Below, in pieces: positions 19,792 to 49,125 of a stretch of DNA of 64,000 bases (position 1 is its first letter; each line of letters starts with the position of its first letter). The notes below the pieces were generated by a model that worked only from the letters and a program-made list of their open reading frames with translations, searched no databases and was not told the origin of the DNA. The stretch is from assembly GCA_965213925.1 (NCBI GenBank), contig OZ243927.1, positions 864,001-928,000 of the forward strand, given 5' to 3'. This stretch comes from Trueperaceae bacterium. GTDB taxonomy: Bacteria > Deinococcota > Deinococci > Deinococcales > Trueperaceae. Both the position numbers and the translations under genes were made by a program.

Positions 19792-20682
19792 ATGGACGAA
19801 TAAGAGACACTCATATTGACAAATTGTGTTGAGGAATACCTGAAAGCTCGTAATCTGGACGGCTACAGTGACAAAACGCTCTATTCCTACAGGCTGCATC
19901 TAAATCGTTTGACCGCAGATTTGGGCAATGCCACTCCTATCGACATTATCAAGCTCGAACATCTACGTTCTCACCTCACCAGCCTGACGCATCTGCAAAC
20001 CTCAAGTTTGGCGAACAAGGTCCGCGCCCTTAAAGCCTTTTTCAAGTGGCTCTACGAGGAGGAGATATTGGAGCGCAACCCCGCACTGAAGCTGAGGGAG
20101 CCGCGCTTACCCGCGAGAATCCCTAAAGCGCTTTCGGTTGAAGAAGTTGAGCTGCTGCGTGACGCCTGTGAGAGTTTATTGGAGCACGCCTTAGTCGAGT
20201 TCTTCTTCGCCACCGGCTGCCGTGTGAGCGAAATTCACCAACTGGACCGCATCGACCTCGACTGGGTGCGGCGCAGCGCAGTCGTGCTGGGCAAGGGTAA
20301 TAAGGAGCGCGAGGTGTACTTCGGAGCAAAAGCCGCGCTGTGGCTCAAACGATATCTCGACAGCCGAACGGATAGCTCTTTGGCGCTATTCGTTACGAAG
20401 CGACGAAGACGCCAGCATAGCGGGGCTTTAGAGCATCAGCGTCTCAGCACGTCGCAGATACAACGCATCTTTAAGCGTGTGGCGCGGCGGTGCGGCTTGG
20501 AGGAGAAAGTAACCCCTCACGTGCTGCGCCACACGCTCGCAACTCTTCTGCTAAACCAAGGTGCACCGATCGCTGCCGTGCAGTCCATCCTCGGGCACGC
20601 CTCGCCCACCACAACACAGCTCTATGTCAACCTCTCCGGTGAGTCGCGGCAGATGCTCTACAAAAGGCATTTCCCGCAGTAA
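19792..20682 (+). CDS. Tyrosine recombinase/integrase (XerC/D-like); ATG at 19792 is followed by an in-frame TAA at codon 4, and the ORF resumes at TTG 19816
   Basis: N-terminal SAM-like domain; catalytic R (TGCRVSE), K (GKGNKER), HxxR (HVLRH), H (LGH), Y (TTQLY). Confidence 0.9.
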
Positions 20683-20730
20683 GGAAAGGTTGTTCTTTTG
20701 TCAGCGAAAGGGAAGCTGTATAATACAGCT

Positions 20731-20955
20731 ATGGCTGACAGCAATTTTGAGCGCACCTTCGCGGCTTTACCTCCCGACCTCAAGCAAGAGGTCCAAGACT
20801 TTGCTGAGTTTCTCCTTTCCAAGCGATCAACGCAAGATAGAGCTGTGAGTGACGCTCACCCGCTCGCGAGCTTAGCGGGCGCATGGCGCGACGAGCCGCT
20901 CTCGGACGAAGACCTCTTGCCTGAACGAACGCTCGGACGCGGCGTCGATCTCTAA
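20731..20955 (+). CDS. DUF2281-like antitoxin
   Basis: LPPDLKQEVQDFAEFL...LAGAW; upstream of a PIN toxin. Confidence 0.7.
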   Translation: MADSNFERTFAALPPDLKQEVQDFAEFLLSKRSTQDRAVSDAHPLASLAGAWRDEPLSDEDLLPERTLGRGVDL

Positions 20956-20962
20956 ATTCTAG

Positions 20963-21364
20963 GTGCTTTATCTTCTCGACACGGATACGCTTGTTTTCTA
21001 CTTGCGGGGACGCTCCGAGGTGAGACAGAAAATTCTCAGCGTCCCTACGGATGATCTCTGCACTAGCGCTATGTGCATCGGCGAGCTTTATTATGGTGCG
21101 GAGAAATCTCAGAAGCAAGTGGAGCGAAAAGCCGAGGTCGACCGCTTGCGTGCGGCGCTGATGAGCATCCCTCTGCAAGGGGCGGTGATGGAGCGCTTCG
21201 GTCAGTTGAAGGCGTCGCTCGAGAAGCAAGGCGAGCGGCTAGCTGACGCCGACTTACTGATCGCGGCGACAGCTCTGGAAAACAACCTCACGCTCGTCAC
21301 GGGCAACCTCAAGCACTTCCAGCGTGTGCAGGGGCTGAAGATGGAGAGTTGGATCAAGCGCTGA
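20963..21364 (+). CDS. vapC: VapC PIN-domain toxin
   Basis: YLLDTD, GELYYGA, DLLIAATAL, LVTGNLKHF. Confidence 0.9.
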   Translation: MLYLLDTDTLVFYLRGRSEVRQKILSVPTDDLCTSAMCIGELYYGAEKSQKQVERKAEVDRLRAALMSIPLQGAVMERFGQLKASLEKQGERLADADLLIAATALENNLTLVTGNLKHFQRVQGLKMESWIKR

Positions 21365-21385
21365 AACGTCAGAAGGGCTGAGCCA

Positions 21386-21417
21386 TTATGCGTGAGACGC
21401 GCGCGTCTCTTGCAGAA
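21386..21417. repeat. 32-bp candidate recombination site G
   Basis: TTATGCGTGAGAC-GCGCGC-GTCTCTTGCAGAA (30/32 identical to site A). Confidence 0.85.
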
Positions 21418-21438
21418 GAAATCAGCAAGTATAACTCT

Positions 21439-21873
21439 TTAAGAGGTGGTTGCATCCTTCGGAGGGTAACGCCCTATTGCCTGCAAAACCTCCCGCTCCA
21501 GCAGCCTTTCGCGGACGTTGAACTGGAGCAGGCGTTCGGTGACGCGGGCGATATCGGTGAGCGGCATGATCTTCACCTGGTCGAGTTCGAAATGCTCAGC
21601 CCACAGGTCCACTCGCGGATTGTAAAAGCGCGCGAACGCCTCTGTCTTCCAGTCGATCGAGCCGATGTCGCTTCCCTTAGCGCGATTACAGACCACGCAG
21701 GCGAGTGCTAGGTTGTCCTCTTCGGTCCGCCCGCCGTGTTTCTCGCTGATGATGTGATCGATTTGCATTGCGTAGTAGCTGTCGTCTTCGTGGATCAAGC
21801 AGTATTCGCAGCATCTATTCGCCTTAGCTAAAACGCGCTGGCGCAGGTCCGCCGGGATATACGTTTTACTCAC
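21439..21873 (-). CDS. HNH endonuclease
   Basis: CCEYC...IDHIISEKHGG...NLALACVVCNRAKG...YNPR. Confidence 0.85.
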   Translation of the reverse strand: MSKTYIPADLRQRVLAKANRCCEYCLIHEDDSYYAMQIDHIISEKHGGRTEEDNLALACVVCNRAKGSDIGSIDWKTEAFARFYNPRVDLWAEHFELDQVKIMPLTDIARVTERLLQFNVRERLLEREVLQAIGRYPPKDATTS

Positions 21874-22099
21874 TCAGCAATTGCCTAGCTTTGGCTTTCG
21901 CTAAGCGCATAACGTGCTCGAGCTGCATATACTGGTCGAGCTCGCGACGCTCGTCCTGGGATAACCCCTGCGCCTTCTCTTGTTCGATAAGTTCGGCGAC
22001 CCGTGCTTGTGCGCCCTCAGAGGGGCGGAAGGAGACAACCCCAGAGGGATTTGCACCTGCGATCAGGTCAACGATTTCTTGGTAAGCGAGGGTTGCCAT
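21866..22099 (-). CDS. Small helical protein coupled to the HNH gene (antitoxin-like)
   Basis: FRPSEGAQARVAELIEQEKAQGLSQDERRELD; overlaps the HNH start. Confidence 0.7.
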   Translation of the reverse strand: MATLAYQEIVDLIAGANPSGVVSFRPSEGAQARVAELIEQEKAQGLSQDERRELDQYMQLEHVMRLAKAKARQLLSE

Positions 22100-22131
22100 A
22101 ACGCTATTATACCTCAGCTTGAGAAATGGGA

Positions 22132-22163
22132 TTCTGCGTGTGATGCGCGCGTTCGCCGCACAA
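22132..22163. repeat. 32-bp candidate recombination site H
   Basis: TTCTGCGTGTGAT-GCGCGC-GTTCGCCGCACAA. Confidence 0.85.
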
Positions 22164-22216
22164 AATTATCGAAGAGAACAAACGATGCGATGAGAAACTA
22201 CTTTGTGCCCCAACAT

Positions 22217-22678
22217 CTACCGTTTGAGCAGTCGCGGGTCATAGTTGAACGCTTGCGCCTCGCCGATCTCTACTCGCCCAGCATCGGGATGGTTCGGATT
22301 AAAAAGGTAGTTCCGTTCCGCCGCGACCACACGGCTCGGCACCGCGAGGAGCACCGACGCGTTACGCTTGACCCAAGCGTCCCCGATCGCTTGAGTGGTA
22401 GGTAGACCTTCAGGCTCAGCCCAGTTCTCGGACAAGCTCTCAGGCGACACGTTCAGTAGAAGCGTTTCGCCAAAGGTAATTGGAATAGCTGTATAAGGCT
22501 CAAGCGCACGCTCGTAGTCGATGTGGACGAGTAGCTCCAAAGCTGCGAGGGCTAAACTGCTCGCTAGATAAACGACTGCCGTGCCCGCTGAGTTCCAGCG
22601 ACCTCCGTAACGCCGCGCCCCCTCACCGTCGAATGCGGATGCAGCCCATTTAGGCGCGACGAGCCGCCAGGCTTTCAG
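22217..22678 (-). CDS. RES-domain toxin (NAD+ phosphorylase family); apparent CTG start overlapping the antitoxin stop
   Basis: Frame extends beyond the ORF track call: LKAWRLVAPKWAASAFDGEGARRYGGRWNSAGTAVVYLASSLALAALELLVH...VPS...NYLFNPNHPD. Confidence 0.85.
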   Translation of the reverse strand: MKAWRLVAPKWAASAFDGEGARRYGGRWNSAGTAVVYLASSLALAALELLVHIDYERALEPYTAIPITFGETLLLNVSPESLSENWAEPEGLPTTQAIGDAWVKRNASVLLAVPSRVVAAERNYLFNPNHPDAGRVEIGEAQAFNYDPRLLKR

Positions 22679-23124
22679 TAGAACACTCCATGCTCAACAC
22701 GGTGTAGTAGATGCTCGACCTCGCGCGCTCCCAGCTCACTATGGGCGAGTTCGAAAGGCGTTTGTCCGCCAAAAACTGGGCGCGGTGTCTGCATCCAACG
22801 CCGAGCTAAATCTTTGTCTCCAATGACCTGAGTCGCTAGAGCATAGAGTTCGGCAAAGCGCACCAACCGCTCGGATGGGCTGGACTCGAGTGGCGCACCC
22901 GCCTCTTCACGCCGCTGAACTGTGCGTAAGGAGAGACCAACTGCCTTCGCGAGGTCCTCGCGGGCAATACCTGCAGTCTTGCTGAACTGATCAAAGGCAG
23001 CAGCCGATAAACCTGAGCGCACCGTGCGGATACGCTCGAGCGGGGTACTCTGCGCCAGACCTAAAGCTGCATCCCAGATGCTCTGCTCCGCCGGGGGTGG
23101 GGTGAAATCGAAAACAGCATCCAT
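22675..23124 (-). CDS. Xre/MbcA/ParS antitoxin
   Basis: HTH LSLRTVQRR, ARRWMQTP, FGGQTP, VEHGVF. Confidence 0.85.
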   Translation of the reverse strand: MDAVFDFTPPPAEQSIWDAALGLAQSTPLERIRTVRSGLSAAAFDQFSKTAGIAREDLAKAVGLSLRTVQRREEAGAPLESSPSERLVRFAELYALATQVIGDKDLARRWMQTPRPVFGGQTPFELAHSELGAREVEHLLHRVEHGVFY

Positions 23125-23265
23125 AGCTAACCTCCAGACTACTGTCAATAATTATACGACAGAAGTCGCGTCAAGGCAGACTATTTATCGACATGTATGG
23201 TCAGTACACCTAACTGTCTTGAGGGGCTGATGTAGCGTATGCATGACCGCCCAGCCTACGCCTCG

Positions 23266-24799: not shown

Positions 24800-25780
24800 G
24801 GAACAGATGGAACTCGACGCCCGCGACGTGTGGCGCGCGCCAACTATCAAGAGGTGAAAGAGGGGCGCGGCACCGAGGCGGGCGGCGTGTTCCTAGACAT
24901 TTCACATAGGGACGCCGACTTCAAGAGGGGAGCGCCTCGGCACCGAGGCGGGTTCAAAGACGGCGTGTTCCTAGACATTTCACATAGGGACGCCGACTTT
25001 ATCCGGGAGCGCCTCCCTAAGATCGTTCGCCAGTTCAAAGAGCAGGGCGTGGACATCACCGCTGAGCCGATGGAGGTCGCCCCGACCGCGCACTACGCGA
25101 TGGGCGGCATCAAGATAGATTTCGGGACGGGCGAGACGGACGTGCCGGGGCTCTTCGCCTGCGGCGAGGCCACCTCGGGGGTGCATGGCGCGAACCGCTT
25201 AGGGGGTAACTCGCTCTGCGAGACGGTGGTCTTCGGGAAGGTTGTCGGCGCACATGTGGCGGGCGAGATAGGCGCGCTGCCCGAGCCGAACGTTGACGAG
25301 GACGAGGTGGACGCCGAACTCGCTCGGCTCCGCGACCTGAGCGAGGCAGATGGAGATACAGAACCCGACGCGCTGATAGACGAACTCGGCAACCTGCTCT
25401 GGGACCGCGCGGGGATCGTCCGCAACCAGGTGGGGCTCGAGCAAGGGCTAGAGGAGCTGGCTACGTTGCGCGAACGCGCTCAAAACCTCCGCGTCGAAGG
25501 GGGCGTGACGGGTCACGACTTCGAGTTCGCCAACAACTTACAGTTCATGCTGCTCGCAGCCGAAGCTATCCTGCGCGGCGCGCTCATGCGGGACGAGTCG
25601 CGCGGCGCGCACCACCGCGACGACGCCCCGGAGGAGAAAGAGGAGTGGCAACAGAACATCCTCTACCGCAAAGAAGGCGGGCAGATGGCGCTGACGACCG
25701 AGGCGGTCGGTGAAGTACCCGAAGGGATTCAGCACGCCATAGAGGAGGGGCACACGCTCGAGTATCATCACCTGGAGTAG
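24800..25780 (+). pseudogene. 5'-truncated SdhA/FrdA/NadB-family flavoprotein with an internal duplication
   Basis: ELDARDV (frameshifted), [48 protein letters not shown] present twice. Confidence 0.75.
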
Positions 25781-33454: not shown

Positions 33455-35677
33455 CTATGGGGAGGTATACACCCAATTTAGAAGTGCGCCTTCAACGCCC
33501 CCCGACACCAGACTGTCGCCATCAGATGACCAATCAAGGGCGAGAGAGCCAAAATCACCGAACGTCGTTTGCTGATGCCCTTCCAACCCCGTAATTCTTT
33601 CACCGGTGGCTGCCACCCAAACATGCACGCCGTCGTCCGCCTTCGCTTCGTCATCGTAGGTTGAACCTGACGTGGCGAGCCGGTGACCGTCAGGGCTCCA
33701 CGCTAACTCGTCAATGCCGTAAGGCGCTTCGATTGTAGCTAATGTTTTCTCTGAAGTACTATCAATGATTTGAACTTTTCCGCTCGACCCGCCGACGGCG
33801 AGCCGCTGGCTGTCAGGACTCCAGGCGATAGTTTTCGGATCTCGGTCAATTGTGAACGTGTGCATAAGGCGGCTAGTTTCCGCGTCCCACACTTTGACCT
33901 CGTCATAGCCTCCTCCAGCGAGCTTTGTCCCATCAGGGCTCCACGCCAGAGTAAAAATAGGGCGATAGTCTTGAACCTCGAATGTTTTGAGTAAGCTACC
34001 TGTCGTCCCATCTCGCACCTTGATCGTGCCATCTTGACCCCCACTTGCCAATCTCGTGCCGTCCGGACTCCAGCCGACTGCGTATACCTCACCACGGTGC
34101 GCGTCAACCGAGAAGAGTTGTTTGCGCGTAGCCATATCCCAAATCTTTAGAGCGCCTTCGTTGTCCTGACCACTGGCGCTTGCTAATTTTGAACCGTCCG
34201 GGTGCCAAGCGATGGCGTGAACAAAAGTGTCAAGCTCCGCTAGTGTACCGAGGCTGCGCCCCGAGGCGGCCTCCCAAACCTTAACGGTTCCGTCGTAACC
34301 TCCGCTCGCTACCTTGCCTTCGTGCAATTTGACAGTGGCGACCCGAGCCGCGTGACCGTTCGACGACATGACCTTTTGTCCGCTCTCGGCGTTCCACACG
34401 CTAAACCAAGGGATGGTGTCGTCGGCCGCAAAACGGTCGCCGTCGGGGTGCCAGTCTGCTCCTAAGACCACTCGAGCCTTCCCTACGACGCGCAGCATTT
34501 CTCTGCCCGTAGCGGCGTCCCAGATTCTTAGTTCACCCTCAGTTCCACCCCCTAAGATGCGATTCGTATTGGGTTCCCAGGCTACGACCAGAGGTTGAAA
34601 GTAATCTTCGTCGTCATCTCTCAACAGGACGCGCACAGGCTGACCCGTGTCAGCGTCCCAGATCACGACCTTGCCGCCGTTGCCGCTACTCACAAACTGC
34701 GAGCTGTCGGCGTTCCAGTCGACGTCCCAGACCCCTCCGAAAACATCAATCTCATAGAGGTGTTCGCCGGTTTCTGCATTCCATACACTGATCGAACGGT
34801 CTCCACCTACGATCTTCTCGCCATCCTGACTCCACGCCACAGCGTTATAGGTGTAATTATCGAGGCTCCAAAGCTCCTGGCCGCTCGCTATGTCCCACAC
34901 CCGCAATAACGCGTCGCCGCAGCTAACAAGTTTAGTCCCATCCGGACTCCAAGCTATATCGGTGACTTCTTCTGTATGTCCGACTAGGTCGGCGACGACT
35001 TCGCCCGTTGCCACAGACCAAACTTTAAGGCTTCCGCCCTTAAACGGTGCACCCGAACCACTTGCCACGAAAAGTCCATCCGGACTAAATGCGACCGCTT
35101 CGGCTTTTGCCGAATAGGTGTCGGAATCGAAATGATCATCGAGAGTGAATTTTAGGCTTCCCGTGGTTGCGTCCCAAAGTTTGACCATGCCGTCTGCCCC
35201 GCTAGTCGCGAGCAACTGTCCAGTCGGGCTCCAATCTAAATAGCGGACCTCCGCTGTATGGCCTGCGCCGAGTTTCCAGGCTACGTTAGTAGAGGGTAAC
35301 TGCCCTTCAACTTCTATCTTGCGCGTCGCTTTCGAGGACGTGCTCTTTGCGGAAAGCGTATAAGTTGTCTCTCCAACCGACCAGACAGCAGCTTCGGATA
35401 AACCGCTGACGTCGCCTATATCTGGCTCGAGAGTGAGCGTCAGCGACTCATCGGGAACTTGCCAGCTCAGCTGTACAGCCTCTCCGGCGGGCACAGTGAG
35501 CGTGGAAGCGGTCAATGACGTGATTAAAGTGGGGTCTGTCTCGAGGTCGACCGGGTTGTTGCCGTCTTTTACCTCATGAGTACACGATACTAACAGAGCC
35601 AAACTAAGAAGGAGGGAGCCGACGAGCCGTCTTTGATAAAAAGCCCGCACGTTCAGGCTGCTGAAATAGCGTCTCAT
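33455..35677 (-). CDS. WD40-repeat lipoprotein (probable double beta-propeller)
   Basis: Lipobox-like LLVSC; about 14 GH...WSPDG...WD repeats; ATGA overlap with the upstream gene. Confidence 0.9.
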   Translation of the reverse strand: MRRYFSSLNVRAFYQRRLVGSLLLSLALLVSCTHEVKDGNNPVDLETDPTLITSLTASTLTVPAGEAVQLSWQVPDESLTLTLEPDIGDVSGLSEAAVWSVGETTYTLSAKSTSSKATRKIEVEGQLPSTNVAWKLGAGHTAEVRYLDWSPTGQLLATSGADGMVKLWDATTGSLKFTLDDHFDSDTYSAKAEAVAFSPDGLFVASGSGAPFKGGSLKVWSVATGEVVADLVGHTEEVTDIAWSPDGTKLVSCGDALLRVWDIASGQELWSLDNYTYNAVAWSQDGEKIVGGDRSISVWNAETGEHLYEIDVFGGVWDVDWNADSSQFVSSGNGGKVVIWDADTGQPVRVLLRDDDEDYFQPLVVAWEPNTNRILGGGTEGELRIWDAATGREMLRVVGKARVVLGADWHPDGDRFAADDTIPWFSVWNAESGQKVMSSNGHAARVATVKLHEGKVASGGYDGTVKVWEAASGRSLGTLAELDTFVHAIAWHPDGSKLASASGQDNEGALKIWDMATRKQLFSVDAHRGEVYAVGWSPDGTRLASGGQDGTIKVRDGTTGSLLKTFEVQDYRPIFTLAWSPDGTKLAGGGYDEVKVWDAETSRLMHTFTIDRDPKTIAWSPDSQRLAVGGSSGKVQIIDSTSEKTLATIEAPYGIDELAWSPDGHRLATSGSTYDDEAKADDGVHVWVAATGERITGLEGHQQTTFGDFGSLALDWSSDGDSLVSGGVEGALLNWVYTSP

Positions 35678-36798
35678 TTGAAGAAGAGGCTCCAAAGGAT
35701 AACTTCTGCTCCTCGGCTACCAGAGACGAGAAACTGGCCGTCCGAACTCCAATCAAGCGTGGTAACTGATCCGATATGACCTATAAGTGAAACAAGCTCT
35801 TGGCCGGTTATGGCGTTCCAGATTTGGACACTTTGGCCGTCGCCGCTGGCGGCGAGTTGAGTACCGTCAGGGCTCCAGCTAAGCCCATAGATAAAGCGGT
35901 TAACGTCTGAATATATAGTGAACGGCTCCGAAGGAGATATCAGGGTCCATACCTTAACCTTGGACGAGTCAAGCGTAGCGGCTAAACGCGTACCGTCAGG
36001 GCTCCAAGCCAAATTGTGCACGCTATCGTAAGTGTCAAGCCCTTTCAAGACAATTTCCTTGCTCGTCGCGACCTCCCAAACGCTAACGTCTCCCCACTGG
36101 TTGCCCGCTGCGAGAAAACGTCCATCTGGACTCCAGACGATGTCAGCGATGCGGCCGGAGATTCCAGAAAAAGACACGCCCTCAGTCCCGGTCGCAGCGT
36201 CCCAGGTCTTAATAGCGCCTATACCGCTGTCTTTTAATTCGCCTCCTGCCGAGCGGACGCCATCCGGCCCCCAGTCGATAATCGCTTCGTAGCTGCCTTC
36301 AATCGTAAGTTGAAGACCTCCAGATGTTACGTCCCAAGTCTTGAATCTAGCCACGCTACCTGTCCCAGCGCCAGGGACGATTTCATAATAAGCAGCTGTT
36401 GTAAAGGCGCTGCCATCAGGCTTCCAAGTTGCGTCATCGAAGCCTGGATAGCTATTGTCGGTGAGAGACGATAGTTTCGTTCCGGTTGTAGTCTGCCACA
36501 GGTAGGCAACACCATCACGGGCAACGCTTAAAACACGGCTGTTGTCTGGGCTGAAGGTTACGGCAGTCACCTCGTCTTGGTGCCCCGCCGCGAAGGTGGT
36601 AATGGTCAGATCCTTCGCAGCAGTGTCTGCATTCCATAGTCCAAGCGTGCCATCTGTGGCTCCTGTGAGAAGTTTAGTGCCCTCTGGATGCCAAGCAATG
36701 TCGGCTTCCCAGGAAGAAAGTCCCTCCGTCTCCTTAGCGCCCTTGAGTTCTCGCAGCGCAGACCCAGTTGAGGCATCAGCAAGAATGGCATGGAGATC
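35674..36798 (-). pseudogene. 5'-truncated WD40-repeat protein
   Basis: WD40 frame continues upstream of 36570 (DIAWHPEGTKLLTGATDGTLGLWNA) to about 36798, where cas5e sequence takes over. Confidence 0.8.
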
Positions 36799-36800
36799 CC

Positions 36801-37073
36801 TAGCCGATCTATCTCGGTCGGCGTGGCTACTATCCGAGCGTCCCGCTGTTTGTCATTGACGGGCTGAAAAAGGCGAGTTTGGAGGAGGCTATCGCTACCT
36901 ATCCCCGTGTCCTAGCCGATAAAGCGGTGCGGTTCGCCGACTGCCACATCGAAGGCAAAGGCAAGGTCGTACACGACCAGCCCGTCAGCTTCGCCACTCA
37001 TACCTTCGGACCCCGGAGGGTCTACCACTGCTGCGTCAGCAAGTTAGGAGCATCATGTACGTCACCGAACTGA
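36801..37073 (+). pseudogene. cas5e: C-terminal half of type I-E Cas5 (Cas5e/CasD)
   Basis: *PIYLGRRGYYPSVPLF...DQPVSFATHTFGPRRV matches the Cas5e LYLGRKSCxPSxP and DxPxSF...F..R motifs; overlaps the cas6e start. Confidence 0.8.
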
Positions 37074-37723
37074 CCTTAAACCAGGACAACCTCTTCGCCA
37101 TGCGCGACGTCGCCGACCGCTACGAGACGCACCGCTCTGTGAAGCGCTTGACCGAAGGGATGGAGCGCAGGGTTTTGTGGCGGCTCGACATGCAGCGTGA
37201 ATGGCGGCTCACGGTTCAATGTGAGCGTCCGCTCGAGCCGCGCTATGTGTCCAAGGCGATGCCCGGATACGCCGATCAAGTCCGGAGCGCGGAGGTTGCT
37301 ACGAATTTCGACCCTGGCGACCTGCTCCTCTTCCAGCTCGAGGCGAACCCGACCGTGAAGTGTGCCAAAAAGCGGCGGGCGCTAAAGAGTATGGCTGAGC
37401 TACAGGAGTGGCTACAAAGGAAGTTTGATGATGCAGGTTGTGAACTCCTAGACTTTGCAATCTTGAAGCAGCAAGCGTTACGGTTATATCGCCAGAAGAG
37501 GCCAGATGAACAAGAAAATGACGACGAGAATGGGTGTAAGTACGCCATGTTCAACAGCGTCAGGTTCATGGGCAGCACTAAAGTAGTAGACCTTAAAGCG
37601 CTCAAAGATACGCTCGAGGCTGGCATCGGCAGCGCGAAGGGATATGGCTTTGGGTTGCTCTCATTGCGACCTATCCCTTACAGAGACATAGCTGGAGTTA
37701 AAGTCTCAAAAAGCGTGTGTTGA
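37055..37723 (+). CDS. cas6e: Type I-E CRISPR endoribonuclease Cas6e/Cse3
   Basis: MYVTELTL, YETHR, VLWRLD, FQLEANPT, QEWLQRK, G-rich loop GIGSAKGYGFGLLSL. Confidence 0.93.
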   Translation: MYVTELTLNQDNLFAMRDVADRYETHRSVKRLTEGMERRVLWRLDMQREWRLTVQCERPLEPRYVSKAMPGYADQVRSAEVATNFDPGDLLLFQLEANPTVKCAKKRRALKSMAELQEWLQRKFDDAGCELLDFAILKQQALRLYRQKRPDEQENDDENGCKYAMFNSVRFMGSTKVVDLKALKDTLEAGIGSAKGYGFGLLSLRPIPYRDIAGVKVSKSVC

Positions 37724-37729
37724 TCGAGC

Positions 37730-37878
37730 CTTTTCCCCACTCGCGTGGGGGTGGCGCGGGCGACTGATGCGCCTCGCCCTACTCCTCGCCTTTTCCCCAC
37801 TCGCGTGGGGGTGGCGCGCAAACGGGCGCGGCGAAGGGCAAAGAGGGCATTCTTCCCCACATTGGTGGGGGCGGTACC
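37730..37878 (+). CRISPR. Type I-E mini-array: 2 identical repeats, 1 diverged terminal repeat, 2 spacers (60-bp period)
   Basis: CTTTTCCCCACTCGCGTGGGGGTGGCGCG at 37730 and 37790; TTCTTCCCCACATTGGTGGGGGCGGTACC at 37850; CCCCAC/GTGGGG stem plus 8-nt handle; starts 7 bp after the cas6e stop. Confidence 0.92.
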
Positions 37879-38048
37879 ATCAGCAGAGCAAATCAAAAGC
37901 GAAAGCTGGAGTAAGTCCAGTGCATCGCGGCGAATCGCCAAAATACATTGGACGGCTGATGTATAGAAATGTCGATATCCAAGACATTGGGCGCATGATG
38001 TTTGAAACTCTTGATTAGACGAGGACTTACAGGAAGGCGTAGCAACTC

Positions 38049-38711
38049 CTATGTTGCGACTGGATGTCGAATCTCTCCAATCATGAGTCCCATTACTATG
38101 CTCGATTGGAACCAGCAGAAATTCTCGTCAACAGGGGCACGAAGTACATCCGTGAAACGCAGGTCGTACCCGCAAATTACGCAACAGTGGAGTTCCTCTT
38201 CGTCACCTCTACCGATCACTATAGCGCTCCCATAGCTATCACACTCGGTGTGTAGAAAGTTCTTATGATGTACGCAAACGCTGCAAAAGCTATACATCCA
38301 CTCCCGCCGAAAGAAAGGTTGCGTGTCCTCGAGAAGGCAGCGCGGACAATATTGAGTTGTGACAATTGGTTTAGGAGTTTTCGTCTGACGTGGGCGGTGA
38401 GAAAGTAGCTCACGCGAGCGGACACTCGCGCTTTTAATGCGTACCCGTGTCGGCGCAAGCAGCGCTTCGATATCGCCCACTGCTTGACCCGTACCCCGAG
38501 CCAAAACCTCGACCACGCTTTCTAGCTGACTGCCCTTTCGGTCTCTTATCCCTTTAGGGATAAGAGACTTGAGCAGCTTTTTTCCACTCCGCTTCTCCAA
38601 CACCTTCCAAAATCTATCCCAAGCTAAGCCGTTGCTCACAGCCAACCTAGCAACCCAGGAAGCGAAACTCTCACCTTGAAACAGTGAAGCGTGATACAGC
38701 CACAAATCCAT
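38049..38711 (-). CDS. tniQ: TniQ family target-selector protein
   Basis: N-terminal LWLYHASLFQGESFASWVARLAVSNG; Zn-binding QYCPRCLLED..PFFRREW...CVHH...CCVICGYDL. Confidence 0.85.
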   Translation of the reverse strand: MDLWLYHASLFQGESFASWVARLAVSNGLAWDRFWKVLEKRSGKKLLKSLIPKGIRDRKGSQLESVVEVLARGTGQAVGDIEALLAPTRVRIKSASVRSRELLSHRPRQTKTPKPIVTTQYCPRCLLEDTQPFFRREWMYSFCSVCVHHKNFLHTECDSYGSAIVIGRGDEEELHCCVICGYDLRFTDVLRAPVDENFCWFQSSIVMGLMIGEIRHPVAT

Positions 38712-38834
38712 ATGACAGTGTAGCAAATAGAGCAGCTTTCTTCGAAAGGACTGAAGTTGTAAACCGCTTCGGAGATCGCCCGTATACAGCCACTTTGTGA
38801 TATTATGCAGATGTGCCCCGCCCGAGCCAGAGCG

Positions 38835-38880
38835 ATTCTCAGTATTCTTTACCTATTCTCAAAATTCTTTGTTTCTGACA
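38835..38880 (-). mobile_element. Tn7-like transposon end (terminal TGT plus two putative TnsB-binding repeats)
   Basis: Minus strand reads TGTCAGAAAC-AAAGAATTTTGAGAAT-AGGT-AAAGAATACTGAGAAT; repeats at 38855-38870 and 38835-38850, 20-bp period. Confidence 0.7.
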
Positions 38881-38883
38881 CAC

Positions 38884-39908
38884 CTATTCGAATAGAGGCG
38901 ACTGCGGCGGATAGTTCGTAATCATGACCTCTTTGCCCTTCGCCGCGCCCTCTTGCTTATAGTTGTTCATCCCGTACTGAAGTTCCCAAGGGACGATGTG
39001 CGCAAATGAAAAGAGCGCCCTGACCTCTTCGCAATCGTCATAAGTGATGAGCCATTTGTGCTTCACCTTTTGCATCACGGCGGCAAAACGCTCGTGATCG
39101 AAGGTCGTGTGCAGCTTCCCTTTTTTGCCGTAGAGCTTTGACTTTGTAGCGGATAAATAGGGCGGGTCCAGGAAAATAAAGACGTTTTCGCCGCCTAACG
39201 CACCGGGAGACCCGGATGCTGCGGACCCTAAACCCGGATGCTGCGGACCCTAACGCACCGGGAGACCCGGATTTCGCCGGACCCTAACGCACCGGGAGAC
39301 CCGGATGCTGCGGACCCTAACGCACCGGGAGACCCGGATGCTGCGGACCCTAACGCACCGGGAGACCCGGATGCTGCGGATGGCGCTAAGACGACCTCTT
39401 CGTAGTCGAGATTGGTAATCTTGGTCCCTTCAAGAAGAGGGGCGACGCGCCGTAAACGCCCTATCGAGGACTGCGTGAAGCGCTTTTCAAATGCACCTTG
39501 CGAATAGCCGCCCGCTTCGACCGTGCCCGAAAAGGTGATGCGGTTGAGGAGAAAAAAGCGGATGGCTCTGTGTAAGGGTGCGTCGGGTACGTTATCGACC
39601 AATGAGCGGTGCAGCGTGCGTCCGTCTGTCACCGTATCTTTCTGCTGCTGCACGCCTTCGACGAGCGCCTCTGGGCAATCGCGTAGGTAAAGCCAGAAGT
39701 GGTAAAGCTCTGCGTTGAGGTCGCTAATCCAGAACGAGGCGTTTGGGTGTTGCTGCCGCAAAGCTAAAAAGACAGAGCCGCCCCCTATGAAGGGTTCGCG
39801 GAACTCGCTGAACGTTGGAACGAGCGGCAGGATGGTTTTAAGTGCTTTTGCCTTACCGCCTGGATACCTCAGCGGTGTTTTTACCGAAGTGAAAAGACCG
39901 TCTTGCAT
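38884..39908 (-). CDS. dam: Dam-family (D12 class) DNA adenine methyltransferase, frameshifted within a 33-bp tandem repeat as assembled
   Basis: TPLRYPGGK, EPFIGGGSVF, SDLN in 39228..39908; FIFLDPPY, FDHERF, WLITYDD, EVMITNY in the downstream frame. Confidence 0.85.
38924..38958 (-). other. Protospacer for CRISPR spacer 2 with 5' AAG PAM, in the 3' end of dam
   Basis: Minus strand AAG|CAAGAGGGCGCGGCGAAGGGCAAAGAGGTCAT versus spacer CAAACGGGCGCGGCGAAGGGCAAAGAGGGCAT: 29/32. Confidence 0.9.
39194..39380. repeat. 33-bp tandem repeat (about 5.5 copies, two aberrant)
   Basis: Unit CCTAACGCACCGGGAGACCCGGATGCTGCGGAC (GSAASGSPGAL); one 22-bp and one 34-bp copy. Confidence 0.9.
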
Positions 39909-40882: not shown

Positions 40883-41239
40883 ATGTACCGAGGAAGAGAA
40901 GGGCAGTGGGCGTTCGTACTCCACCGACTTTCCGGTGTAGCACTCGCTCTTTATCTGCTGCTACACGTTTTAGATATCAGCTTGATCATGTATGGACCCA
41001 GAGTGTTCAACGCCTTTTTAGCGTTCTATCACCAGTGGCCCTTTCGCATCGGTCTTATATTGATCATGGCGGGCGTCGTCTACCACTCGTTCAACGGACT
41101 GCGCATTATCTTGATGGACTTTACCGAGTGGGGCACGCGCTATCACCGCTCGCTCTGGTACGGCGTGCTAGGAATTACGACTATTATCGGCATTCCCGTT
41201 CTCATCAAAGTTCTCCCTGAAATCTTTGGAGGTGCCTAG
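40883..41239 (+). CDS. sdhC: Succinate dehydrogenase cytochrome b subunit
   Basis: MYRGREGQWAFVLHRLSG, HSFNGLRI. Confidence 0.9.
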   Translation: MYRGREGQWAFVLHRLSGVALALYLLLHVLDISLIMYGPRVFNAFLAFYHQWPFRIGLILIMAGVVYHSFNGLRIILMDFTEWGTRYHRSLWYGVLGITTIIGIPVLIKVLPEIFGGA

Positions 41240-41676
41240 TGGCCGTTAAAGCCAAAACGCTCAACCAGGCGAAAGCCTTACACAACACTAACAGCGAACT
41301 CGCGTGGTGGGTTTTCATGCGCGTGTCGGGGCTTATTCTTGTCTTTTTAGTCTTTGGACACCTCTACTTCAACAACATCGCCTTTAACGCAGGCAACATC
41401 GACTACGCTTACGTCGCTGAGCGCGTTTCGAAGCCCTGGATCAAGGTCTACGACTCCTTCTTGCTCGGTTTTGCCATGTTGCACGGCGTCAACGGACTGC
41501 GCTACAGCATCGAGGATTACATCCGCAAACCGGGGCGGCGTTTCGCGTGGAAGGTGGTGCTCTATACGGTGGCAGGCATCATCCTCGTTATCGGCGTGAT
41601 CACGCTCTGGTCCTTTTCATTCGACGAGATGGGCGACGCGGTTCGTGCGCTGCCTGCCGAACAACATTCGCAGTAG
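41239..41676 (+). CDS. sdhD: Succinate dehydrogenase membrane anchor
   Basis: FMRVSG, HGVNGLRYSIEDY; operon position. Confidence 0.9.
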   Translation: MAVKAKTLNQAKALHNTNSELAWWVFMRVSGLILVFLVFGHLYFNNIAFNAGNIDYAYVAERVSKPWIKVYDSFLLGFAMLHGVNGLRYSIEDYIRKPGRRFAWKVVLYTVAGIILVIGVITLWSFSFDEMGDAVRALPAEQHSQ

Positions 41677-41688
41677 GTAGGAGGCACT

Positions 41689-43428
41689 ATGTCGAGAGCA
41701 CATAAATACGACGTGATTGTGATTGGCGCGGGCGGCTCAGGGTTGATGGCGGCGCGGTACGCGGCGCAGGAGCCCGGCGTGTCCGTCGCGGTCATCAGTA
41801 AACTTTACCCGACCCGCTCGCATACAGGGGCGGCGCAAGGGGGTGTGGGCGCAGCTTTAGGCAACGTCACCGACGACCACCCCGACTGGCACGCCTTCGA
41901 TACGGTCAAGGGTGGCGACTACCTAGCGGACCAAGACGTCGCGGAGATGTTCGCGTACGAAGTCGTCGAGGCAGTCTACGAGTTAGAGCACATGGGCTTG
42001 CCCTTCTCACGTACGCCTGAAGGCAAAATCGCCCAGCGTAAATTCGGTGGGCACACCCGCGAATTCGGCAAGAGCGCCGTCGAACGTGCCTGCTACGCGG
42101 CGGACCGCACGGGTCACATGATTTTGCAGACGCTCTATCAGCAGTCCATCAAGAACAACGTGACCTTTTTCAACGAGTTCCACGTGCTCGACATGATCAT
42201 GGAAGCCGGTGAGTGTCGCGGCGTGGTGGCGTACGAGCTTGCCACGGGCGAGCTTCACACCTTCCAGGCGAAAGCCACGATTGTCGCCACCGGCGGCAAC
42301 GGGCGCATGTTCAAAGTGACCTCGAACGCGCACGCCTTGACGGGCGACATGATGAGCGTCGTCTACCGGCGCGGCATCCCGATTGAAGACCCCGAGTTTT
42401 ACCAGTTCCACCCGACGGGTCTCTACAAAATTGGCGTTTTACTGACTGAGGGCGCAAGAGGTGAAGGTGGGATTTTGCGTAATAGCGAGGGCGAGCGCTT
42501 TATGGAGCGTTACGCGCCTTCCATCAAGGACTTAGCGCCGCGGGACATGGTCTCGAGGGCGATGTACCTAGAGATGCGCGAAGGGCGCGGCACCGGACCC
42601 GACGCCGACTACATCCACCTCGACCTCACCCACATCGACGATCACATCATCGAGACGCGCCTCCCCGATATCACCGAGTTCGCCCGGATTTACCTAGGCG
42701 TTGACCCCTTAAACGAGCCCGTCCCCGTGCAACCCACCGCGCACTACGCGATGGGTGGCATCCCCACGACCATCGACACCGAAGTCATCATGGACGGCGA
42801 CAACGCCGTCGTGCCAGGGCTCTACGCCGCAGGTGAAACAGCGTGCGCCTCGCTGCACGGCGCGAACCGCCTCGGCACAAACTCGTTAGGCGACCTCATC
42901 GTGTTCGGACGCCGCGCGGGTATCTTCGCTGCTCGTTACGCCGCGGGAGCGGAGTACGGCAAGCTGCCTTTAGACGCGCAAGACTTTGCTAAGAGCCAAC
43001 TCGACACCGCGCTGAACGGCTCTGGTAAGGAGCGCGTGAGCCGCATTCGTAAAGAGATGCAAAACACCATGATGGACAACGCCTCGGTCTTCCGCACTGA
43101 AGAGACCCTGTGTACGCAGATCGAAAAGCTCAGAGAACTCAAAGAGCGCTATAAAGGCATCGGCGTTGAGGACAAGGGCGAGCAGTTCAACACGGAGCTG
43201 ATGGAAGCGATTGAACTCGGCTTCCTTTTAGACAACGCCGAGCACCTCGTCCACGCGGCGTATAACCGCAAGGAATCGCGCGGCGCGCACTCCCGCGAGG
43301 ACTACAAGGAGCGCAACGACGACGAGTGGCTCAAGCACACGCTCGTCTATAAAGACGGCGACGGCGTGCGCATCGACTATAAACCCGTAACCTTGGGCAA
43401 GTACGAGCCTAAGCCGAGAGTTTATTAA
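41689..43428 (+). CDS. sdhA: Succinate dehydrogenase flavoprotein
   Basis: [32 protein letters not shown]. Confidence 0.97.
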
Positions 43429-43514
43429 GCAACTCAGCGTCTCAGCTAGTCAGCATTTCAGGTCTTTCCTGACTAGCTGACTAGCTGACCGGCTGAAATG
43501 CTATAAGGATTTTT

Positions 43515-44237
43515 ATGAACGCAGACGCAATGAAACCCAGAGAAATCAACGTCAAGATCAAGCGCTTTAACCCCGAAGAGGACAAGCGACCTTATTGGGC
43601 GGAGTACAAAGTCGAAGCGCGACCGACTGACCGCGTGTTAGACGTGCTCCACGAGATTAAATGGGAAATCGACGGCACGCTCTCCTTCCGCCGGAGCTGC
43701 GCGCACGGCATCTGCGGCTCGGACGCGATGCTTATCAACGGCGTGAACCGCTTAGCGTGCAAGATTTTGGTCAAGGATTTGGGCGATGACATCTCGGTTG
43801 AGCCGATTCGCGGGCTCGAGGTGCTTAAAGACATGGTTGTCGACATGGAGCCCTTCTTCGACTCCTACAAAGCGGTGCTGCCCTACTTCATCAACGACGA
43901 CGCCCCGCCCACCACCGAGCGCTACCAGAGCCCCGAAGACCGCGAAGTGTTCGACGACACGACCAAGTGCATCCTCTGCGCGGCGTGCACGACCTCTTGC
44001 CCGATCTTCTGGACGAACGGCTCGTACTTGGGTCCAGCGGCGATCGTTAACGCGCACCGCTTCATCTTCGATTCACGTGACAGCGGCACTACCGAGCGTT
44101 TAGAGGTGCTCAATCAGGCCAACGGCTTGTGGCGCTGCCGCACCGCATATAACTGCACGCAGGCGTGCCCGCGCGGGATTCCGGTGACGCAAGCGATTGA
44201 AGAGGTTAAGAAGGAGTTGTTGTGGCGCAGAGCGTAA
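43515..44237 (+). CDS. sdhB: Succinate dehydrogenase iron-sulfur subunit
   Basis: SCAHGICGSD, CILCAACTTSCP, CRTAYNCTQACP. Confidence 0.97.
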   Translation: MNADAMKPREINVKIKRFNPEEDKRPYWAEYKVEARPTDRVLDVLHEIKWEIDGTLSFRRSCAHGICGSDAMLINGVNRLACKILVKDLGDDISVEPIRGLEVLKDMVVDMEPFFDSYKAVLPYFINDDAPPTTERYQSPEDREVFDDTTKCILCAACTTSCPIFWTNGSYLGPAAIVNAHRFIFDSRDSGTTERLEVLNQANGLWRCRTAYNCTQACPRGIPVTQAIEEVKKELLWRRA

Positions 44238-47827: not shown

Positions 47828-49125
47828 ATGAAGAGGTTCATTTTAGGGTTGCTCTCGCTGAGCCTGGTGTTCGGCGCGGCGCAGGCGCAAACGACGATCC
47901 GCTTTTCGGGGGGCGCGTCGGGTCCGGGGCTCGAGACCGAGCGCCAATTGGCCCAGATGTACATGGAGCAAAACCCGGACGTCACGGTCGAGGTGCTCCC
48001 CGGTCCCGACTCCTCGGACGAGCGTTTTTCTCTGTACCTCCAGCTCTTCGAGGCGCAGTCCGCCGACTTCGACGTGTTACAGCTCGACATCATCTGGCCC
48101 GGTCAGCTCGCGCAGCACCTCGTAGACTTGAATCAATACGGCGACATCCAGAGTTCGACCAGCGAGTTCTTCCCGGCCATCGTCGAGGCGAACACGGTGG
48201 ACGACAAGCTCGTCGCGATCCCTTGGTTCACCGACGCCGGGCTGCTCTACTACCGCACCGACCTCCTGGAGCAGTACGGCTTTGGCGGTCCGCCCGAGAC
48301 TTGGGCGGAGCTTGAAGAGATGTCCACCGCCATCCAAGAGGGTGAGCGCCAGAACAACCAAGACTTTAGCGCCTTTGTGTGGCAGGGTCAGTCTTACGAG
48401 GGGCTCACCTGCGACGCTCTGGAGTGGATCAACTCGGCGGGCGGCGGACAGATTATCAGCCCCGAGCAGGTTATTACGGTCTTCAACCCGAACGCGGTGG
48501 ATATGATAGCCCGCGCCGCAAGTTGGGTCGGCAACATCTCGCCTACAGGCGTCACGGGCTTTCAAGAGGAGGACGCGCGCAACTTCTTCCAGCCGGCAAC
48601 GCCGCGTTTATGCGTAACTGGCCCTACGCCTACAGCATCATGAACGCCGACGACAGCCCTATTTCGGGCAACTTCGACGTGGTGCCGCTGCCCCACATCG
48701 AGGGTAACAATTCCGCCGCCGCCTTGGGCGGCTGGAACTTAGGCGTGTCGCGCTACAGCCAAAACCCTGAGGTTGCCGCCGACGTCGCCGCGTTTTTCGC
48801 CTCACCCGACGCGCAGAAGCTCCGCGCGGTCGAGGGCAGCTTTATCCCGACGCGCCCCGCTCTGTTCGAAGACCAAGAGGTCTTGGAGGCGCAACCCTTC
48901 TTCGGACGTCTTTTGGACGTCTTTACGGGCGCCGTAGCGCGCCCTTCTGCGCCGACGGGTCAGCAGTACAACGAGGTCTCGAGGGCCTTCTACACCGCCG
49001 TCCACAACGTGCTCACAGGCGAGGAACAAGCGGAGATCGCCCTGGAGATTCTCGAGCTTGACCTCCAAGACATCACCGGCTTCGAAGTCGGCGACCCGCA
49101 GACGCAGACGGGTTCGACTCAGTAG
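47828..49125 (+). pseudogene. Sugar (trehalose/maltose-type) ABC substrate-binding protein, 1-bp frameshift near 48592
   Basis: DIIWPG, WFTDAGLLYYRTDLL, YEGLTC in the first frame; GNAAFMRNWPY and LGGW in the second. Confidence 0.85.

Follow-up and report, generated by a model that had tools for sequence, protein, structure and literature searches.

How does a three-repeat CRISPR array come to hold a spacer that matches the gene next door, with tniQ and a transposon-like end lying between the two? This question is raised by positions 36804-38958 of a 64,000-nt stretch of the Trueperaceae bacterium contig OZ243927.1 (positions 864,001 to 928,000), which we call "the window" and whose own numbering is used for all coordinates below. 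The order of features is a cas5e fragment, cas6e, a mini-array, a convergent tniQ, an end that begins with TGT and, just outside that end, the target of the array's second spacer in the 3' end of a dam gene. We consider it likely that 36804-38882 is a fossil, the right end of a type I-E CRISPR-associated transposon (CAST) which depended on TniQ and homed to the 3' end of dam. The locus itself is confirmed as real, far beyond what chance would produce.

The central observation is the match between spacer 2 and dam. Spacer 2, taken as 37819-37850 (one matching base lies inside repeat 3), is identical at 29 of 32 positions to the reverse complement of 38924-38955, and its next-best match anywhere in the window is 20/31. 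The trinucleotide AAG, the canonical protospacer adjacent motif (PAM) of type I-E systems, stands at 38958-38956 on the minus strand, 5' of the protospacer. The PAM-distal side of the protospacer faces the TGT end across a gap of 42 nt; counted from the PAM's first base, the end is 76 nt away. The protospacer encodes K-QEGAAKGKEVM, the most conserved C-terminal Dam motif in an alignment with 18 homologues (in which QYGMNNYKQ is invariant), and the mismatched guide positions (4, 5 and 29) correspond to variable Dam codons in the same alignment. The element ends 1 nt beyond the natural dam stop, the same C-terminus being found in P0164 and P0171. The insertion therefore spared its target gene, as in CAST homing. 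The features are as follows.

35674..36800, minus strand: WD40-repeat gene, truncated at its 5' end, left neighbour outside the element (Pfam WD40 on 35674-36570)
36804..37073, plus strand: cas5e C-terminal fragment, 89 codons plus stop (TIGR01868 and PF09704, both below cut-off)
37055..37723, plus strand: cas6e (casE/cse3), 222 aa, apparently intact (PF08798, TIGR01907)
37730-37758, plus strand: repeat 1, 29 nt, identical to repeat 2
37759-37789, plus strand: spacer 1, 31 nt
37790-37818, plus strand: repeat 2, 29 nt
37819-37849, plus strand: spacer 2, putative homing guide, matching the dam 3' end
37850-37878, plus strand: repeat 3, terminal and atypical, with the stem of repeats 1 and 2 and a different loop and flanks
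37893..38726, minus strand: tniQ pseudogene (ATG at 38711, stop at 37895-37893; PF06527)
38835..38882, minus strand: putative transposon right end (TGTG at 38882-38879; 16-nt sites at 38870-55 and 38850-35)
38925..38958, minus strand: protospacer (38955-38925) and AAG PAM (38958-38956), inside the dam 3' end
38884..39908, minus strand: dam, a D12-class adenine methylase and the target gene (stop at 38886-38884; PF02086 on both halves)

TniQ-dependent CASTs have ends with TGT termini and repeated transposase-binding sites, and are flanked by a 5-bp target-site duplication. Read from the dam side, the interval between dam and tniQ begins with G, then TGTGTCAG, and then has two abutting 16-nt sites. 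These are direct sites of the form AAAGAATNNTGAGAAT, with 14 of 16 bases in common and a spacing of 20 nt, and we take such abutting sites beside a terminus to resemble a Tn7-type right end. The start of tniQ and the stop of dam are separated by 171 nt, and this interval is poor in G+C (0.448 for 38727-38880 vs 0.584 for the window). A search of the window for further 16-nt sites or a left end gave none at two or fewer mismatches and four matches at three mismatches, which is chance level. The right boundary is placed by the TGT and the geometry, not by comparison with an empty site.

The effector genes on the other side of the array are of type I-E. Cas6e scores above the curated cut-offs of both PF08798 (E 3.6e-34, 119.4 bits, cut-off 25) and TIGR01907 casE_Cse3 (66.9 bits, cut-off 45.2). 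It aligns over its full length with the Thermus thermophilus Cse3 chain 1wj9_A (E 3.1e-21), conserving the position of His26, which we take to be the catalytic residue of Cse3; by tblastn it is nearest to the Thermus thermophilus protein, at 35-36% identity. This affinity and the TrmFO of the host, which scores 610.8 bits against PDB 3g5q, are suggestive of a Thermus-Deinococcus host lineage. The cas5e fragment matches positions 144-227 of the 230 in TIGR01868 casD_Cas5e (E 0.0046, 16.7 bits, cut-off 68.95) and positions 138-217 of the 217 in PF09704 (E 0.0023, under the curated cut-off). It shares 19 nt with the start of cas6e, matching the cas5e-cas6e order of I-E operons. An in-frame stop (36801-36803) stands directly 5' of the fragment, and on the minus strand a WD40-like translation reaches approximately 36800 without a start codon, with a stop upstream. 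The junction is therefore one of two truncated genes fused head to head.

What else a CAST or an ordinary I-E locus might contain was searched for in 47 of the 56 open reading frames (ORFs) of at least 150 aa in the window, plus local ORFs around the element; this is the scope of all ORF scans of the window reported here. No cas1, cas2, cas3 or tns gene was among them. Cas8e, Cas11 (Cse2) and Cas7e are likewise not found in the window, and their expected place is deleted. The canonical place of cas1-cas2, after cas6e, is occupied by something else, and this copy has lost the segment upstream of cas8e in which cas3 would canonically lie; the intact element presumably lacked cas3 as well.

What follows cas6e is the mini-array, which begins 6 nt past the cas6e stop and leaves no room for a leader. 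The I-E-type repeat core has exactly three matches in the 64-kb window, vs 0.06 expected by chance, and each of the three repeats folds as a hairpin of 7-bp stem and 4-nt loop. PMC11300857 gives this as the I-E repeat shape (29 nt with a 7-bp stem and a 4-nt loop). For spacer 1 the window offers no second match, and its matches elsewhere are at chance level (three plasmid records at E 0.2-0.6 and two phage records at E 0.8). Rfam at gathering thresholds gave no match in the window, and promoter and terminator scans of 36700-39000 gave nothing exceeding shuffled sequences.

The gene between the array and the right end is tniQ, as the first-pass annotation of this DNA had proposed for 38049..38711: it matches PF06527 with E 2.3e-17 and 64.4 bits (cut-off 27). 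That ORF stops at 38049 because of a single in-frame TAG (38051-38049), at which the relative P0013 has Trp. Beyond the TAG, the frame continues to a C-terminus common to P0002 and P0013, and the read-through translation has 277 codons, the TniQ of this kind being 272-277 aa. An alignment of 60 TniQ sequences contains eight near-invariant zinc ligands, of which the sixth (Cys) is Tyr in the window copy (38234-38232). Given the in-frame TAG and the loss of a zinc-ligand Cys, tniQ is therefore a pseudogene. A second match to the core of the protospacer, 13/16 at 37926-41, was considered and set aside as coincidence; it sits in tniQ codons for FAA.

A structural model of TniQ built from the 60-sequence alignment reached a pLDDT (predicted local distance difference test) of 79.4 and a pTM (predicted template modelling score) of 0.78, and supersedes an earlier model from six sequences (pLDDT 45.8) which was too poor to use. 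In a Foldseek search of the PDB with the new model, the rows listed for ranks 1-22 contained TniQ or TnsD chains only. The best predicted fold matches were the TniQ of a I-B CAST (8fcu_P, E 9e-4, 271 columns) and of V-K CASTs (8bd5_Q and 7oxd, TMt 0.73-0.74), and TnsD and I-F3 TniQ ranked below these. By sequence, the PDB yielded a marginal match to I-F3 TniQ across the zinc-finger stretch (E 0.0061). Among 72,556 plasmids, the best TniQ match had 26% identity over 93% of the query; its neighbours are a protein with a Mu-transposase C-terminal domain and TniB, and the 16.7 kb displayed carry no TnsA annotation.

Much of the first-pass annotation, which had proposed a decayed type I-E CRISPR-associated Tn7-like transposon with a homing guide, withstands these analyses. 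Its features all lie where it put them or a few bases off. Its type I-E assignment stands, with Cas6e confirmed by profile hidden Markov models and the Cas5e tail weak but correctly placed, as does its leaderless I-E mini-array, found 6 nt after cas6e with three I-E-shaped repeats. The spacer target that it placed just outside a TGT end is there (29/32, AAG PAM, PAM-distal side toward the end, 42 nt), and the end with repeated sites is present as sequence (TGTG and two 16-nt sites). It was also right to call the copy decayed, given the cas5e truncation, the tniQ TAG and the lost Cys, and right that the window lacks tnsABC and cas8e/11/7, none being in the ORFs scanned. As far as the data allowed a check, none of the three observations that it had named as refuting was made. 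Of the overall claim, the anatomy, the I-E effector, TniQ and the homing geometry hold, but the Tn7-like nature is unsupported, since no tnsA, tnsB or tnsC occurs in the ORFs scanned.

Does the same combination occur elsewhere? The tniQ clade is tiny. HMMER over 1.84 billion cluster representatives gave 1,037 matches at E ≤0.001, of which only four TniQ reached E ≤1.9e-20, namely the query P0002 and, besides it, P0003, P0013 and P0014; the match after these was at 4.6e-16. The cas6e clade is similar, with four close members (P0004-P0007) at 57-89% identity and then none above 34%; P0005 is encoded on a contig of 6,508 nt. TniQ P0002 and Cas6e P0006 are encoded on one contig of 5,838,999 nt, and TniQ P0003 and Cas6e P0007 on one contig of 7,077 nt, so the tniQ-cas6e pairing recurs in both of the other sequences in which it could be checked. 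The longer contig probably holds an intact copy. On the shorter contig, P0003 (140 aa, 79% to the window TniQ) and P0007 (151 aa, 87% to the window Cas6e) diverge or stop approximately halfway, and it looks as if this copy is frameshifted too or the contig is error-prone. A Cas6e-anchored scan of 185,579 species genomes gave 43 pattern matches and no confirmed relatives.

The target site was searched for separately, using a codon-wobble pattern of the guide and protospacer in species-representative genomes. This gave 106 loci (80 with full flanks): Dam C-termini in 17 cases, for the most part belonging to cyanobacteria and candidate-phyla bacteria, and unrelated genes that contain AAKGKE in the other 89. 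None of the 106 loci is itself a spacer of an array, and custom TniQ and Cas6e profiles had no match in them. Pfam searches of 34 ORFs downstream of dam in 12 loci showed no Tns, TniQ or Cas protein, and the neighbours varied. The element family is absent from the species-representative collection scanned. Unoccupied dam sites do exist, in distant lineages; because they come from distant phyla, they do not fix the element boundary.

We also predicted the contact on which TniQ-dependent targeting would depend, using a complex of P0002 (TniQ) and P0006 (Cas6e). The predicted complex scored 0.50 (runs 0.56, 0.50 and 0.44), the best of three controls scored 0.00, the runs shared at least 82% of their contacts and the partner had a pLDDT of at least 81. 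The pass mark is met by 116/157 solved complexes and 2/215 mismatched pairs, counts which hold only roughly here given the custom 5-row alignments used. Passes at ≤0.60 comprise only 18/157 solved complexes and both of the passing mismatched pairs. The pass may only show likeness, because TniQ-Cascade complexes of other subtypes have already been solved. The prediction lends weak support to a TniQ-Cas6e contact.

A mechanism can be proposed for the intact ancestor. Its cas operon would have been co-transcribed with the mini-array directly after it, and Cas6e would have cut the precursor CRISPR RNA at the 7-bp hairpins. The terminal unit (the typical repeat 2, spacer 2 and the atypical repeat 3) would have yielded a dedicated homing CRISPR RNA, with which Cascade would bind the AAG-flanked protospacer in the conserved dam 3' end. 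TniQ, docked at the Cas6e (PAM-distal) end of Cascade, would then recruit the transposase, for which TnsC and TnsB, perhaps along with TnsA, are the presumed proteins, though not one of them is seen. Integration would proceed right end first, approximately 42 nt beyond the protospacer and just past the dam stop, leaving the target gene whole. A later deletion joined the middle of cas5e to the truncated WD40 gene, taking with it cas8e/cas11/cas7, any transposase genes and the left end, after which tniQ gained its nonsense codon and lost a zinc ligand. Of all this, the genes, the array, the match with its PAM, orientation and spacing, and the lesions are observed, and the transposase, the lack of Cas3, the contact of TniQ with Cascade and transposition itself are inferred.

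Several points weigh against a I-E CAST that homed to dam. The window contains no tnsA, tnsB or tnsC and no cas8e, cas11 or cas7, and the Cas5e identification scores under cut-off. Neither the left end nor a target-site duplication is present, leaving the right boundary on the TGT and the geometry only, and there are two putative binding sites, both of which define the pattern, so the search for further sites is not an independent test. Guide mismatches 4 and 5 fall in what we take, per E. coli I-E, to be the seed, where weaker binding is expected. The support from the predicted complex is weak. A shared dam site is unsupported among the relatives, as none of the 120 best Dam homologues is on their contigs, and of the motif-bearing dam loci in species-representative genomes, 0/17 has TniQ, Cas or Tns nearby.

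These gaps leave room for other explanations, the nearest of which keeps the mechanism and changes the carrier: a TnsA-less TniA/TniB/TniQ transposon (Tn5053- or Mu-type) could have taken up the I-E Cascade. The plasmid-borne TniQ closest to the query does sit in a Mu-transposase-C-terminal/TniB/TniQ module with no annotated TnsA, but 26% identity tells little about partner genes. Similarly, the short length of TniQ (272-277 aa), far below that of the weakly matching I-F3 chains (358-410 residues), would suit such a carrier, whereas the best predicted structural matches are the TniQ of Tn7-like CASTs (I-B and V-K) and TnsD, and the abutting sites near the terminus look to us like those of a Tn7-type right end. 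We regard a carrier of this kind as unlikely, while allowing it a real share of the probability.

Two further readings dispense with guided transposition altogether. The locus could be a decayed ordinary I-E system that happens to lie beside an unrelated TniQ transposon remnant, its self-matching spacer being an accident of adaptation. Self-targeting spacers do occur in ordinary arrays, only fragments remain here, and cas1-cas2 and cas3 could have been deleted like the left part. This is nonetheless very improbable: members of these rare tniQ and cas6e clades occur on one contig in each of two further sequences, the array stands 6 nt from cas6e at the normal place of cas1-cas2, and a chance spacer would not be expected to show the right PAM, the right orientation, a CAST-like distance to a TGT and a spared target gene. 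Alternatively, TniQ and Cascade could form a domesticated, non-mobile module, e.g., for RNA-guided marking or repression of dam. No transposase is seen, and in other systems it is established that a Cascade lacking Cas3 can repress by binding DNA. Yet repression would be poorly served by a target at the extreme 3' end of dam, the expected position of a CAST end is exactly where the TGT end and its repeated sites are found, and the solved complexes returned by the fold search all have TniQ as a transposase adaptor. Of the readings weighed here, we give domestication the least credence.

A fossil I-E CAST right end thus remains the preferred reading, and the I-F3 CASTs (Tn6677 and the Tn7-CRISPR-Cas elements) are among the closest known systems. 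These also combine TniQ with Cascade and have a short array directly after cas6, a terminal homing spacer with an atypical repeat and mismatches to its target, and a protospacer within the 3' portion of a conserved gene, at some 40-50 bp from the right end. According to Petassi et al. 2020 (10.1101/2020.07.02.184150), the I-F3 homing spacer is usually terminal, is flanked by atypical repeats and tolerates mismatches. Unlike I-F3 elements, the window element has Cas6e and Cas5e, 29-nt repeats whose stem measures 7 bp, an AAG PAM and a tniQ which is convergent with the cas operon and stands alone against the right end. Its TniQ is also shorter (272-277 aa vs 358-410 residues), and its spacing is 42 nt vs about 48 in I-F3.

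Other CAST subtypes share individual traits with it. PMC9881144 states that I-D McCAST inserts 75 +/- 6 bp from the PAM start, close to the 76 seen in the window, but its Cascade is of another subtype and its PAM is GTT. The TniQ proteins of I-B (8fcu) and V-K (8bd5, 7oxd) CASTs are the best matches to the predicted structure (E 9e-4 to 1.4e-3), but sequence identity is only 15% and their partner effectors differ. In addition, the I-B CAST homes via the protein TnsD rather than a guide, according to PMC11656645. The defence I-E system of Thermus thermophilus (Cse3 1wj9, 2y8w) shares an end-to-end alignment of Cas6e and the same repeat hairpin shape with the window locus, which differs from it in having no cas1-cas2 after cas6e and, in their stead, a three-repeat leaderless array followed by tniQ and a transposon end.

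Faure 2019 is said to concern a TnsBC-linked I-E system of Streptomyces. The first-pass annotation had called the pairing of I-E with a Tn7-like element rarely reported, which calls for a correction: an I-E CAST is in print, namely the Streptomyces I-E5, even if it has no TniQ and does have Cas3. Hsieh et al. (10.1101/2024.11.13.623437) describe I-E5 as a telomeric TnsBC element of Streptomyces with no TniQ and no protospacer beside its ends, and the 2025 classification (PMC12669027) records no TniQ-TnsD and an active Cas3. That classification lists as CASTs I-F3, I-B, I-D, I-C, IV-A, I-A (Mu-like) and I-E5. Like I-E5, as described there, the window element ties a type I-E Cascade to a transposon without cas1-cas2. 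It is not a member of I-E5, since it has TniQ and a protospacer beside its end, whereas I-E5 has, in those descriptions, tnsB-tnsC within the cas operon, an active Cas3 and a location at the telomeres of linear replicons.

A second I-E association is with Rpn proteins. Rybarski et al. (10.1101/2021.08.16.456562) describe Rpn-associated Cas3-less I-E Cascades, called non-Tn7, which lie near a putative mobilising nuclease and some of which have self-targeting spacers. These systems resemble the window element in having an I-E Cascade and, in some cases, in self-targeting. They differ in their partner, which is an Rpn (PDDEXK) protein; no PDDEXK or Rpn match was found among the window ORFs scanned.

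The 2024 review PMC11656645 names I-E among Tn7-like captures, citing Faure 2019, Rybarski 2021 and Faure 2023. The main text of Faure 2023 has no occurrence of "I-E", and that of Altae-Tran 2023 has no TniQ, its I-E variants being nuclease fusions. Searches of the CRISPR-transposon literature yielded no TniQ-linked I-E CAST; they did not reach figures, supplements or subscription journals, and a prior mention there is possible. Those I-E transposon associations that can be traced in print (telomeric TnsBC and Rpn-linked) lack TniQ, and their mechanisms are still unclear. On balance, we favour seeing the remnant and its few relatives as a separate capture of I-E Cascade by a TniQ-encoding transposon, homing by guide to the conserved 3' end of a widespread dam gene and distinct from the TniQ-less, Cas3-bearing telomeric I-E5.

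RNA-guided transposons provide a natural means of inserting large DNA in a programmable way, and each new pairing of effector and transposase is another wiring of Cascade to transposase. Type I-E is the biochemically best understood Cascade. A TniQ-linked I-E system with a guide, an AAG PAM and a defined spacing would permit comparison of how TniQ reads PAM-distal ends with I-F3, I-B and I-D, as well as tests of whether I-E Cascade can recruit TnsC. It would also be a further case of independent CRISPR capture, with an unusual target: not a housekeeping gene but a conserved motif of a methylase gene which itself moves between phyla. The window copy is dead, and its value is in pointing to intact relatives.

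The dam gene has features of its own. Its closest homologues, P0162-P0168, share 76-85% identity with the N-terminal query. Its frame is broken within a 33-nt tandem repeat at 39210-39380 (minus strand), which consists of approximately 4.5 copies of 33 nt and a 22-nt variant. The repeat encodes AASGSPGALG units in the linker preceding the DPPY motif; P0162 has two such units and P0163 a single one, and none occurs in the remaining 16 aligned Dam homologues. It looks like an insert of variable copy number, possibly prone to slippage. At four loci in other genomes (L014, L020, L044, L058), the downstream surroundings of dam homologues are unrelated to one another, with a large serine recombinase and a DDE transposase among the neighbours, as well as a HaeIII-type restriction enzyme and IS605 OrfB/TnpB, contexts which fit a methylase gene that travels with mobile or restriction-modification DNA.

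Some other observations in the window concern its remaining genes. On the minus strand, 33455-36800 holds two large ORFs for WD40 beta-propellers, of 746 aa and 298 aa, with a 22-nt overlap. The 5' end of the upstream one is missing at the cas5e junction; a frameshift, in addition to the deletion, may have disrupted what was a single long gene. At 47828-49125, two overlapping ORFs in different frames encode the N-terminal and C-terminal parts of SBP_bac_1, which looks like a frameshifted solute-binding gene. Taken with the broken dam and tniQ, this points to numerous pseudogenes or else to assembly indel errors. A 316-aa ORF at 24830-25780 contains only C-terminal parts of a succinate dehydrogenase/fumarate reductase flavoprotein (the end of FAD_binding_2 and Succ_DH_flav_C). 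The full sdhCDAB operon is a long way off, at 40883-44237, and the ORF is probably a paralogue that has been truncated. Finally, a tyrosine recombinase (Phage_integrase, 19816-20682) lies near an Xre/MbcA/ParS-type antitoxin (22675-23148), and the two may mark another integrated element (19816-23148), unrelated to the CAST remnant.

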